Below are positions 5,254 to 12,241 of a stretch of 64,000 nt of DNA, piece after piece (the stretch's first letter is position 1; the number at the start of each line of letters is the position of its first letter). Source of the DNA: Escherichia coli (GTDB lineage: Bacteria; Pseudomonadota; Gammaproteobacteria; Enterobacterales; Enterobacteriaceae); NCBI RefSeq assembly GCF_044324785.1, contig NZ_CP172127.1. The stretch is one strand, 5' to 3'. The notes under the pieces were generated by a model. It ran no database searches, was not told the origin of the DNA, and saw nothing but the letters and a program-made list of their open reading frames with translations. A program made the position numbers and the translations under genes.

Positions 5254-5600
5254 TTTAATGATTTCATGAATATAAATAAATTCCGAAAAATAACCTTACC
5301 CATTGCAATTAATATATTCCCTAAGCTACAACCATAATTAATATTATATACCCCGCTAACACCTTCTACCTCACATACAATATTTCTTCCGCTTTGTACA
5401 TTAAGCTTTACTTAAAGATGAATTAAGTGGATATATAAATTTAAATATGCACAATATCCCACTTGGTGATGAACAGATGTTACATTCAGTAAATCTTCAC
5501 ATTCATCATTAACAAACCAATCTATTTTTCTCTATCGGGGTTCTTTGTCTGAAAGTACCCGATCGTAGTTAAACTCATGGAATATGATTCAAGGATTATT

Positions 5601-6173
5601 ATGTCTAAAAAATTAGGTTTTGCCCTGTCTGGTCTAATGCTGGCAATGGTTGCAGGTACTGCTTCTGCTGATATGGACGGTGGTCAGATTAACATCAGTG
5701 GCTTGGTTAGCGATAACACCTGTGAAACAAAAGTTGATGGCGGCAAGCAAGATGGCCTGGTTCTTCTGCAAACTGCAACGGTTGCTGAAATTACCGCTGG
5801 TGTATCTGAAACTGCTGTCGGCGCCAAAGCGAAACCGTTTAGCATTACTGTAGACTGCAGCAAAGCGACTCCGGGAGGCCAACCGACTCTGACATTCGGT
5901 TCAGTCTTCTTTGGTAACAGTCGTGGCACTTTGAATAACGATATGTCCATCACCACCCCGTCATCTGGTGTGAATATCGCCCTGCACAACATTGACGGCA
6001 CCACGGTTAAACAAGTCAAAATTAATAATGCATCTGATGCTTACACTAAAGCATTAACCAATAATGTTGCAGTCTTTGACTTCAAAGCCTCCTATGTTCG
6101 TGAAGACAACTCAACACCAGCAACGGCTGGTTATGTAAGAACCAACACAGCTTACACCATCACCTACAATTAA
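5601..6173 (+). CDS. yadN: fimbrial major subunit, YadN-like
   Basis: [23 protein letters not shown] signal peptide, conserved Cys pair, C-terminal ...[13 protein letters not shown] typical of type 1-like pilins; first gene of the yad chaperone-usher operon. Confidence 0.75.
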
Positions 6174-6265
6174 GTTATTCGTTGGTGATTTAAATTACTA
6201 CAAGGGTGCGACACCTATTGTCGCCCCCTTGTCTTGAAAACAATTCATGTCATGGATGGTATATT

Positions 6266-6997
6266 TTGTTAAATAAAAAGAATATTGTCGCATTATGTGT
6301 TGTCAGTAGTATGGCATTTAGTATGCCTGTTATGGCCGATATTGTTATTTCCGGTACACGCGTCATTTATAAAAGTGATCAAAAAAGCGTTAGCGTACGC
6401 CTGGAGAATAAAGGCAATAGCCACCTGTTAGTACAAAGCTGGCTGGATACCGGTGACGATAACGCTGAGCCAGGAAGCATTAATGTACCATTTACGGCAA
6501 CACCTCCCGTTTCACGTATTGATGCTAAACGCGGTCAAACCATCAAATTGATGTATACCGGCAGTACCGTACTCCCCAGCGATAAAGAAAGCGTATTCTG
6601 GTTTAACGTGCTGGAAGTGCCCCCAAAACCAGATGCTACAAAAGTGGAGAATCAGAGCCTGTTACAACTGGCTTTCCGTACCCGTATCAAGCTGTTCTAT
6701 CGTCCGGCAGGATTAAACGGTAACCCGTCTGAAGCACCATTAGCCCTGAAATGGAAATGGGCTGAAGGGAAGTCTGGCCTGAGTGTATATAACCCAACAC
6801 CTTATTACGTCTCTTTCAACAGCGCAGAGTTAATCGCTGGCGGTAAGTCGAACCCGCTCAACGTAAAAATGATTGCACCGAAAAGCGAAGAGATTTTCAC
6901 CATAAGCGGTTCAGGCGGGAAAGCAACGTCAGGAAAGGTACATTTCTCAGCGATCAATGATTTTGGCGGCGCAATTGAAGGCGATGTCAATTTGTAA
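6266..6997 (+). CDS. yadV: periplasmic fimbrial chaperone (PapD-like), YadV/EcpD-like
   Basis: Mature part ADIVISGTRVIYKSDQKSVSVRLENKGNSHLLVQSWLD... is PapD-family; no in-frame ATG gives a signal peptide, so the start is TTG 6266 (SD-like ggatgg upstream) or GTG 6206. Confidence 0.7.
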   Translation: MLNKKNIVALCVVSSMAFSMPVMADIVISGTRVIYKSDQKSVSVRLENKGNSHLLVQSWLDTGDDNAEPGSINVPFTATPPVSRIDAKRGQTIKLMYTGSTVLPSDKESVFWFNVLEVPPKPDATKVENQSLLQLAFRTRIKLFYRPAGLNGNPSEAPLALKWKWAEGKSGLSVYNPTPYYVSFNSAELIAGGKSNPLNVKMIAPKSEEIFTISGSGGKATSGKVHFSAINDFGGAIEGDVNL

Positions 6998-7031
6998 GAC
7001 CAGGGACCTTATGCAGCAGGAAGCCAATGTA

Positions 7032-10211: not shown

Positions 10212-10224
10212 AAGGATAATAATA

Positions 10225-10824
10225 ATGCAGATGAAATCATTACATTATGGGATATTTGCAAGCATTACTCTGAGCTTATTATTATTCAGCACGTTTTCTA
10301 TAGCCATCACTGATAACATTGGCCTAAACGTTATGACCATTGTTGAAAACAGAACTTGTCAAAGCGAAATCAACAACCAGGGGTTGGTTAATCTTGGCAC
10401 TGTTGGAGTGGGATATTTTGCCAGTAATGTTAGTGCGGAAGATAATTATCCAGGCGGAAAAACCTTTACTGTGACAGTAAAAGATTGCCCCTCCGCTGGC
10501 ACAACATCAAGTCAGTTGCATATAGAATTTAAACCTGTCAGTGGTGTAATGGCCACTGGTAGCCAACAGATATTCGCCAATAATCATGTCGGCGGCGCAC
10601 AAAATGTAGGAATCGTTATTTTTAGCCAAAATAATCAGTCATCGGATACAGTGAATGTGCTGTCACCAACAGGGCAGTTTCGCACGGTCTGGCCTGTTGT
10701 CTCTGCGAATATGAATAATTCATCGTGGCAATTTTATACACGAATGCAGAAAATAGATCCGTTACTCCCGGTTGGTGCAGGATTTGTTACCAGTAACGTA
10801 TTAGTTGATATTTATTATCAATAA
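10225..10824 (+). CDS. fimbrial minor subunit (YadL/YadK-like)
   Basis: ATG at 10225 behind SD aaaagga; MQMKSLHYGIFASITLSLLLFSTFSIA signal peptide; pilin fold cysteines; ends ...VLVDIYYQ. Confidence 0.65.
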   Translation: MQMKSLHYGIFASITLSLLLFSTFSIAITDNIGLNVMTIVENRTCQSEINNQGLVNLGTVGVGYFASNVSAEDNYPGGKTFTVTVKDCPSAGTTSSQLHIEFKPVSGVMATGSQQIFANNHVGGAQNVGIVIFSQNNQSSDTVNVLSPTGQFRTVWPVVSANMNNSSWQFYTRMQKIDPLLPVGAGFVTSNVLVDIYYQ

Positions 10825-10877
10825 TTATGCTAAGCATAATGCTTCTACAAATATTATTTTTTCAAAGGAGTGATAAG

Positions 10878-12128
10878 ATGAAGTCAGCGTTCCGATACTT
10901 TATTTTTTTATGGATTATCACAGCCAGCATTAATAATGTAAATGCTGGAAGTCTTACTTTTATGGTCGGTAACGATGCTGGCATAGGAAACACGCACGGC
11001 CCAACAGGCGATAAACTAATATCATTTGCCTATCCGGTTGGTGGAGTAAACAATATTGTATTTTATGATCCAACATCAGACACACCGACCGATGCAAAAA
11101 TAAAATTATATTGGAGTGAACTGGACACATCAAGTAGCGGTGGGACTGTATATTGTACTTCAAAAGATAATTCCAGCGGTGTGCCAATTACTGTCCGGCA
11201 TCAGATGGTTTACTCAGGAAAAATGGCAGATGGGCACAAATTATATGAAACCAATGTTACCGGTCTATATTATACGTTAATGCTCAATAAATTCTGGTCG
11301 TATGAACTTCTCTCAAGCTCTCCAGATATGTACGTTGGAGACGACGGCTGGCACACTGTACAATTTTATATTACGGGTAATTATATGCGAGGTCAATGTA
11401 ATACTAAAAATATACAAGCCGTCGGGGGCCTTGCTCACGATGCTACAGTGAAATTCTATACCGACAGAACTTTTAACCCTGCTCCAAATACTAACGTGCA
11501 ATTAAAACACACTGGTGATTATTTGTATTCATTCGAAAATGAAGGACCAGGGAATCCAAATGTAAAGTATTCTAAGAAACTATTCGTAGATTTTAAATTA
11601 ACAGACATCAAAATCCAACTGCCAACATGCTTTACGTCTATCCTTTTGGGTGAGAGCGTAACGCGATCAACCGTAAATCTCGGGGAATATACTGTTGGAC
11701 AGATCACCTCAGATTCTGCAACACCTGTTAATTTTCAGATTTCGCTACAAAATTGTGTTCGAATAAGTAGTATTAAAACAAAACTAAAATCTAATGTAGT
11801 AGGAGTGAATAATCCTCTGTTGCTTGGTAATACTTTGACAGGAACCGATGATGCAAAAGGTGCCGGAGTACTTATTGAAGGGTTACCCAATAGCAAAAAT
11901 TCACAAAATTTCACGCTTAAGCCAAATGATGAGACGTCAAGCTATAACGATGCTGAAGATGATCCTGGAGAAAACAATGGAATTTATAACCCAGATTATC
12001 CTAATGCCAACGGTCGTACTACAACCCAGGACCTGAAATTTCAGGCAACATTAAAACGCGATGGTAATGCAACTGTGAAACCCGGCGGATTTAAGGCTAC
12101 CAGTACATTCCAGGTCACCTACGAGTAA
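10878..12128 (+). CDS. yadC: fimbrial tip adhesin, YadC-like
   Basis: ATG at 10878 behind strong SD aaaggag; 416 aa, signal peptide MKSAFRYFIFLWIITASINNVNA, C-terminal pilin domain ...FKATSTFQVTYE. Confidence 0.7.
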   Translation: MKSAFRYFIFLWIITASINNVNAGSLTFMVGNDAGIGNTHGPTGDKLISFAYPVGGVNNIVFYDPTSDTPTDAKIKLYWSELDTSSSGGTVYCTSKDNSSGVPITVRHQMVYSGKMADGHKLYETNVTGLYYTLMLNKFWSYELLSSSPDMYVGDDGWHTVQFYITGNYMRGQCNTKNIQAVGGLAHDATVKFYTDRTFNPAPNTNVQLKHTGDYLYSFENEGPGNPNVKYSKKLFVDFKLTDIKIQLPTCFTSILLGESVTRSTVNLGEYTVGQITSDSATPVNFQISLQNCVRISSIKTKLKSNVVGVNNPLLLGNTLTGTDDAKGAGVLIEGLPNSKNSQNFTLKPNDETSSYNDAEDDPGENNGIYNPDYPNANGRTTTQDLKFQATLKRDGNATVKPGGFKATSTFQVTYE

Positions 12129-12241
12129 CAGGTTTAACCGCACCGCCATCATCTGGCGGTGCTGTAATTGATAAATCATTGCCCCCACCAATGTGACTGA
12201 TAAAATGCCAGACAGCACGACATTACTTATCAGGATACGTT

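Follow-up and report, generated by a model that had tools for sequence, protein, structure and literature searches.

Yad is a core-associated fimbria of Escherichia coli that is defined by its chromosomal locus and usher clade and is equivalent to Sta of Salmonella (Wurpel et al., 2013, PMC3559732). In K-12, seven genes stand between folK and panB in the order yadN-yadV-htrE-yadM-yadL-yadK-yadC. The same chromosomal site in Salmonella enterica carries the same subunit classes, and in O157:H7 (phylogroup E) it carries another deep allelic class with the same gene order. Type 1 (Fim) and P (Pap) pili are assembled by the same logic, in which a chaperone and an usher act through donor-strand exchange and adaptor pilins link the adhesin to the rod. 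Here, we analysed a 64,000-nt stretch of E. coli DNA (contig NZ_CP172127.1 of assembly GCF_044324785.1; hereafter the window), whose folK-panB interval has in common with the Yad loci of K-12, CFT073 and EC958 the site, gene order, direction, protein families, an AT-rich leader and a two-domain adhesin with a variable lectin domain. Unlike K-12-type Yad, the interval holds six genes with yadL and yadK fused, its proteins are 47-78% identical to those of K-12, and its leader cannot be aligned with that of K-12. We read the block as an intact, divergent class of Yad that became six-gene through the yadL/yadK fusion, is exchanged between lineages as a unit and would be expressed at a low, H-NS-limited level, a joint reading to which we assign a probability of roughly 0.8.

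The whole content between the flanking housekeeping genes folK (4774-5253, + strand) and panB (12242-13036, + strand), named so in homologous loci, is six intact co-directional ORFs on the + strand. They encode a YadN-like major pilin (5601-6173; 190 aa), a PapD-like periplasmic chaperone of the YadV/EcpD type (~6266-6997), an HtrE-like outer-membrane usher (7032-9632; 866 aa), a YadM/StaD-like minor pilin (9651-10211; 186 aa), a second, chimeric minor pilin (10225-10824; 199 aa) and a tip adhesin (10878-12128; 416 aa), with respective identities of 78%, 76%, 75.6%, 56%, 54% and 47% to K-12 YadN, YadV, HtrE, YadM, YadK and YadC. The intergenic gaps from usher through both pilins to adhesin are 18, 13 and 53 nt, and a six-frame tblastn search for a seventh gene with YadL gave no match other than the 5' portion of the gene at 10225-10824. 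An earlier note made from the letters alone had described six co-directional genes with only two small subunits between usher and adhesin, had given the K-12 layout as seven genes and had called the block a divergent allelic variant of the yad locus; all of this is borne out here. The major subunit begins at 5601 and the adhesin at 10878, rather than at the first ATG of the respective ORF.

The best match of every gene is the corresponding yad gene, in unchanged order, and the same folK and panB flanks are found in K-12, N3, AF40, O157:H7 and Salmonella. Further, the usher and the chaperone score well above the cut-offs of curated equivalog models, namely NF007337 for HtrE (1587 bits vs a cut-off of 830, over residues 3-866) and NF007398 for YadV/EcpD-type chaperones (417.6 bits vs 285). 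The chimera exceeds the YadK/StaF-type model NF011794 (253 bits vs 132) and the whole adhesin exceeds NF007268 (691 bits vs 382); the YadM-like pilin matches the StaD model below threshold, as do residues 1-130 of the chimera the NCBIfam YadL models. In NCBIfam, the pilins of the window are named after their StaA, StaD and StaF relatives. Pfam domains were recorded on L005, a contig with DNA 99.98% identical to the window, and comprise PF00419 in the major pilin, two PapD domains (PF00345 and PF02753) in the chaperone and PF13954, PF00577 and PF13953 (PapC_N/Usher/PapC_C) in the usher. Because Wurpel et al. (2013) define Yad by locus and usher clade, the operon is assigned to Yad. The block is shown by these matches to be an intact chaperone-usher operon of a deeply divergent allelic class of Yad (Salmonella Sta) at folK-panB.

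The difference in gene number is explained by the second minor pilin. In place of three separate minor pilins (YadM, YadL and YadK), the operon encodes only the YadM-like protein and a YadL(1-41)::YadK(42-199) chimera. The match of this protein to YadK extends over residues 19-199, and its first ~100 residues also match YadL. Its N-terminus reads MQMKSLHYGIFASITLSLLLFSTFSIAITDNIGLNVMTIVENRTC|QSEINNQGLVNLGTVGVGYF, to be compared with MMTFKNLRYGLSSSVVLAASLFSVLSYAATDSIGLTVITTVEMGTC in YadL and with ...AGQDIDLVANVKNSTC|KSGISNQGNIDLGVVGVGYF in all YadK from seven-gene operons. When the chimera was aligned jointly with YadL (three E. coli sequences) and YadK (ten sequences), the optimal breakpoint followed residue 41, with a mean match of 0.46 to L and 0.13 to K before it and of 0.18 and 0.58 after it. 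Informative sites relative to K-12 were distributed likewise, with L-only to K-only ratios of 18:3 before the breakpoint and 8:71 after it, and the Fisher tests against three independent L/K pairs gave p values of 5e-11 (K-12), 7e-9 and 1e-11. The 5' module (residues 1-41; 10225-10347, +) comprises a signal peptide and an N-terminal donor strand, both of YadL type (...AITDNIGLNVMTIVE), and the 3' module (residues 42-199; 10348-10824, +) is a YadK/StaF-type pilin body that starts at the conserved Thr-Cys. The "missing" gene is shown by these alignments to be an in-frame yadL'-'yadK fusion, one hybrid gene, and not a plain loss.

The surrounding DNA is of the type expected from such a fusion. 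Upstream of the chimera, the DNA, ribosome-binding region included, is 63.5% identical to the yadM-end/yadL-start region vs 50% to the yadL-end/yadK-start region, and the cassette is 641 bp shorter than that of K-12, which fits a deletion from yadL codon ~45 to yadK codon ~43. In K-12, N3, L004 and O157:H7 (seven genes each) and in Salmonella (nine genes), L and K are separate genes whose N-termini differ. Because every outgroup examined has separate L and K genes, the fusion is considered derived. An in-frame deletion of ~0.63 kb from an ancestral M-L-K layout, probably in a single step, would have joined the yadL signal peptide and donor strand to the yadK pilin body at the conserved Thr-Cys.

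As established from Fim and Pap structures, chaperone-usher pilins carry an N-terminal extension between signal peptide and first conserved Cys, and this extension serves as the donor strand by which the fold of the adjacent subunit is completed. The N-terminus of the chimera (MQMKSLHYGIFASITLSLLLFSTFSIA / ITDNIGLNVMTIVENRTC) follows this plan, with a signal peptide and then an alternating-hydrophobic donor strand before the first Cys. The body has the marks of an Ig-like pilin fold: C45 and C88 are invariant, as is the penultimate Y198 in the ...IYYQ ending, and the alignment of the sequence with MrkA starts at the Cys. In an AlphaFold2 (AF2) model, residues 1-36 have a predicted local distance difference test (pLDDT) value under 50, and the confident body begins at about residue 42. 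The best Foldseek matches of this model are FimA, FimI, FimF, FimG and PapH (E down to 2e-8), and it superposes on FimA, FimF, FimG and PapH at a sequence identity of only ~15% (9-20%). Judged from these alignments, the junction lies exactly at the boundary between donor strand and body, the hybrid is a YadL donor strand on a YadK body, and the fusion removed both the K-type strand and the L-type groove. We know of no natural donor-strand/body swap of this kind in Fim or Pap, for which no dedicated search was made. In the literature library that was searched, neither the six-gene layout nor the L/K fusion is described.

By analogy with the family, the PapD-like chaperone would cap each pilin in the periplasm, and the HtrE-like usher would polymerise the pilins through donor-strand exchange into a fibre tipped by the two-domain adhesin and containing two adaptor pilins as well as a rod built from the YadN-like major pilin. 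As a tentative and rather doubtful extension, the chimera can be taken as a natural experiment on the wiring of the Yad tip, in which either the lost parts were each other's partners or the chimera docks to itself. If the former, the K strand may dock in the L groove with L nearer to the tip than K, and the fibre would be one link shorter with all contacts cognate; this order is the opposite of the reversed-gene-order rule of Fim and Pap pili. If instead that rule is valid for Yad, the chimera has a strand and a groove that fits it, and may self-polymerise into a flexible tip fibrillum. Either wiring, if true, would offer an initial way into the subunit order and the donor-strand specificity of Yad-family fimbriae and would suggest that pilus architecture can evolve via module swaps at the strand/body boundary. 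The in-frame transfer of one pilin's donor strand onto the body of another is a compact natural test of that specificity.

The earlier note had also described the block as horizontally exchanged, and comparison with the E. coli genome N3 bears this out. Over the upstream 5.2 kb, N3 is 99.7% identical to the window, the next genome among the matches listed reaching 97.9%. No mismatch to N3 occurs at 3614-5635, an interval that spans the leader in full and reaches 35 nt into the major pilin gene, whereas identity over 5636-12172 is 50-85%. There are then 17 scattered mismatches within 12304-12697, inside panB, and none from there to 13898. Despite its identical flanks, N3 carries a seven-gene yad. 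The two backbones are near-identical and the cassettes are different; therefore, one of the two genomes replaced its whole operon by homologous recombination. The swapped cassette, delimited by the first and last positions of wholesale difference from N3, extends over 5636-12172, and the recombination end points, as read from the mismatch pattern, are in the conserved yadN signal-peptide codons (5636) and in panB. In E. coli genomes with 3-9% divergence in the folK and panB flanks, the six-gene cassette is ~99% identical. The cassette thus travels between E. coli lineages as a unit, via homologous recombination in or beside folK and panB, and its high identity to the AF40 type is suggestive of a recent import from an AF40-type lineage.

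The flanking genes themselves vary in a related manner. The 3' end of folK (~4880-5253) is unusually divergent between lineages, with 19-23 mismatches per 150 nt vs 0-6 further upstream, and folK identity to K-12 falls to 87-92% over 4802-5200. The 5' end of panB (12173-12700) is likewise far more divergent between lineages than the outer sequence. Divergence peaks beside the cassette are the pattern expected near a long-maintained polymorphic cassette.

Several observations weigh against parts of the joint reading. The signals for the direction of the swap conflict, as the 5' end of panB in N3 is the odd one out, and the cassette of the window is near-identical to the common class. Also, the cassette is ~99% identical to AF40-type genomes and the pcnB flank ~98%, which is only a modest gap. 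The usher, at 75.6% identity to K-12 HtrE and 74.6% to the N3 usher, is under the 80% cut-off by which genomes were called Yad-positive in a survey that took EC958 HtrE as its reference (PMC13245861). An L-type donor strand on a K-type body may misfit the partners still left. Further, a scan for the H-NS motif was uninformative and is not used as evidence.

The frequent disruption of cryptic fimbrial operons in E. coli (PMC3559732) suits the view that the deletion was a loss-of-function lesion and that the operon is a decaying remnant that builds no fimbria. One genome (P0117) in fact encodes a scrambled, frameshift-like chimeric pilin of 147 aa, which indicates decay of the six-gene class in that strain. 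Yet none of the six ORFs is disrupted in the window or in the six other carriers that were inspected gene by gene for reading frame (among them AF40, L005 and the partial L006), and the fusion is in frame and exactly at the donor-strand/body boundary. The ratio of non-synonymous to synonymous differences per site (pN/pS) is 0.05 between the chimera and its AF40 allele (18 synonymous and three non-synonymous differences) and 0.17 against a third allele; it is 0.06-0.08 for the major pilin, chaperone and usher. By these ratios, the chimera is under purifying selection, not decay, and a decaying remnant is unlikely. The same end product could have arisen in two events, a loss of yadL and a gene conversion of the yadK 5' end, and the 641-bp difference from K-12 suits either route. 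That course is less parsimonious, and the intergenic DNA upstream of the hybrid is of the yadM-yadL type with a spacing of 13 nt vs 11 nt in K-12, as one deletion predicts; we regard two events as very unlikely.

A reversed polarity, in which six genes were the original state and the single minor-pilin gene was later duplicated in tandem into yadL and yadK to give the seven-gene layout, draws on the variable number of minor pilins at this locus. In Salmonella enterica GCA_017102725.1 (L007, 5922-8971), the folK-panB locus has nine genes and five minor pilins in the order M-L-M-L-K, the M-L pair being duplicated. However, a duplication would not leave 41 residues like one daughter only and 158 like the other only, and L and K are already separate genes in the more distant loci of O157:H7 (usher ~60% identical) and Salmonella (61-62%), which makes this polarity highly improbable. 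Least credible is an unrelated fimbrial island that was inserted in place of yad. The low GC content relative to the flanks, an adhesin only 47% identical to YadC and an usher under the cut-off of PMC13245861 would fit such an island, but each gene best-matches its yad counterpart in the same order, K-12 yad occupies the same site, integrase, transfer RNA (tRNA) or insertion sequence (IS) boundaries are absent, and the junctions lie in the conserved yadN signal-peptide codons (5636) and just past the adhesin stop. The reading of a divergent Yad class with a derived yadL/yadK fusion is accordingly retained below.

The six-gene cassette was found in 458 of 5,426 complete E. coli genomes (~8%), at the same site and with matches at 95-99% identity that cover 80% or more of the cassette. 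In carriers, the genes are always annotated under generic names. One carrier is labelled ST69, and the assignment of the class to phylogroup D is based on strain labels (ST69) and a 2026 survey. A sensitive search of the same 5,426 genomes indicated a bimodal distribution of usher gene identity, with 460 genomes at or above 95%, 4,776 at 60-80% and none between; no E. coli usher gene has a nucleotide identity of 80-95% to that of the window. A scan of a genome collection with the usher returned one E. coli locus at 76% identity and gave no cross-species synteny. O157:H7 (ATCC 43888; L009, 10837-17801) represents a third deep class with seven genes, separate L and K and a 369-aa adhesin without a blastp match to that of the window (E ≤ 0.001); its usher is ~60% identical to those of both K-12 and the window (59.5% to the latter). 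The nine-gene Salmonella locus differs further, with an usher and an adhesin 61% and 32% identical to those of the window. By these identities, the folK-panB site is host to several deep, discrete cassette classes. Among the loci examined, the number of minor pilins varies from 2 to 5, and the duplicates in Salmonella are 77% (M copies) and 44% (L copies) identical. In E. coli strain 1190 (L010, 8437-9678), which carries a seven-gene cassette closest to that of N3, yadC is an annotated pseudogene that lacks its N-terminus.

These classes affect how Yad is counted. The 2026 survey required at least 80% identity to EC958 HtrE and scored 5% of phylogroup D and 0% of phylogroup E as Yad-positive (PMC13245861). 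Because their ushers are 75.6% and ~60% identical to K-12 HtrE, under the 80% threshold, the six-gene and O157 classes would score Yad-negative although the site is occupied, and the divergent class of O157:H7 probably explains why phylogroup E was scored as lacking Yad. Yad genes have previously been described as too different in length for alignment (Ren et al., 2016, PMC4850163). Surveys and genome-wide association studies (GWAS) that score yad by identity to K-12 or EC958 will misreport the six-gene class and would label its carriers Yad-negative or "lacking yadL" despite an intact operon at the same site. Reported associations of yad genes with host or virulence may partly reflect cassette class. 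The class itself is a common, database-visible form of a well-known cryptic fimbrial operon, and the general understanding of chaperone-usher fimbriae is unchanged; a known system is refined, and the sole new point is the origin of the six-gene layout in an in-frame yadL'-'yadK fusion at the donor-strand/body boundary.

YadC has been reported to bind xylose or annexin A2. The tip adhesin of the window consists of an N-terminal lectin (receptor-binding) domain (residues 1-242; 10878-11603, +) followed by a C-terminal pilin domain (residues 243-416; 11604-12128, +). Its allele and the uniform one of six-gene genomes share 89.9% identity, and 41 of the 42 amino-acid differences between the two fall within residues 1-242. 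The lectin domain is 76-88% identical to the common six-gene-type allele with a pN/pS of 0.96 and ~40% identical to YadC, vs 99-100% identity, a pN/pS of 0.06 and 56-58% identity to YadC for the pilin domain. By these values, the lectin domain diversifies while the assembly parts stay conserved, and coverage by anti-YadC compounds or vaccines is not expected, given a lectin domain that is ~40% identical and diversifying. Complete RefSeq E. coli genomes lack the allele of the window, with 93.9% as the best nucleotide match over the full length; the exact allele occurs in one draft E. coli assembly, GCA_044691745.1. Relatives of the adhesin are found at 83-100% identity and then none above ~50%; a third allele (83% identical) also adjoins the 199-aa hybrid pilin. 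A search for solved structures related by sequence to the adhesin found none. The idea that the pilin domain of the adhesin is L-like and the M pilin K-like was considered and dropped, the between-class scores being too weak (8-22 bits).

The block is more AT-rich than its surroundings, as the earlier note had held. GC content is 0.430 over 5254-12170 (0.436 in the coding block), compared with 0.531 in the upstream flank, 0.498 in the downstream flank and 0.511 in the whole window. The lowest-GC frame of 6,917 bp in the window starts at 5001 and has a GC content of 0.4297, ~3 standard deviations (sd) below the mean (0.509, sd 0.025). The 3' genes of the operon have a GC content of 0.39-0.41, and the GC content at third codon positions (GC3) is 0.32-0.37 for the adhesin and both minor pilins vs 0.54-0.61 in panB and pcnB. 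The AT-rich leader or promoter region (5254-5600, +), which the same note had put at ~350 bp and called extremely AT-rich, is 347 bp long with a GC content of 0.300.

Leader type is uncoupled from the cassette. The leader is identical to that of the seven-gene genome N3, 97-98% identical to that of AF40 and 56-60% identical to that of K-12, to which it is essentially unalignable; the same type is thus common to N3 and six-gene genomes. Across E. coli genomes, ~450 leader matches were at 95-99% identity, 764 at 80-90% and none in the remainder. A weak sigma-70-like site at 5309-5338 is the single one in the leader, the counts of a promoter and terminator scan were near the shuffled expectation, and an Rfam search over 4700-12400 matched no family. 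A fimS-like invertible switch was considered for the leader and rejected, as only short imperfect AT-rich inverted repeats are present; published work describes Yad as not phase-variable.

H-NS represses seven-gene yad in K-12, CFT073 and EC958 (PMC13245861). The H-NS high-affinity motif TCGATAAATT with at most two mismatches has four matches in 5209-5441, as expected of DNA with 30% GC. On the basis of the 30% GC content and the published repression of seven-gene yad, the leader is a plausible, presumed H-NS target, and expression would probably be held low by H-NS on the leader and on the AT-rich 3' genes.

Minor features remain at the gene boundaries and downstream. The candidate starts of the chaperone are 6263 (the call on L005), a TTG at 6266 and an ATG at 6311 (the AF40 annotation by the Prokaryotic Genome Annotation Pipeline, PGAP). 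The TTG at 6266 would yield the N-terminus MLNKKNIVALCVVSSMAFSMPVMA, aligned with the YadV start (window 6206-6320). The PGAP call in AF40 (L001, 3112) uses an internal ATG and gives a product of 228 aa (MAFSMPVMA...) whose signal peptide is too short. Direct inspection of the sequence shows a GC-rich hairpin (GCACCGCCA-TCATC-TGGCGGTGC) with a 9-bp stem at 12140-12162 (+), 12 nt past the adhesin stop, and the divergence from N3 ends ~10 nt beyond it. It may be the operon terminator or a cassette boundary element, has no clean T-run and is absent from the list of the consensus terminator scan. Downstream of panB, the window contains a direct repeat of 230 nt with 82% identity (13989-14218 and 14321-14550), and GC skew and AT skew are strongly negative across 14000-14750. 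A small minus-strand ORF in the same region (13981-14250) resembles a second copy of the 3' end of the neighbouring rpnC-like gene (14319-15275), and its AF40 counterpart is annotated as 'RpnC/YadD family protein'.

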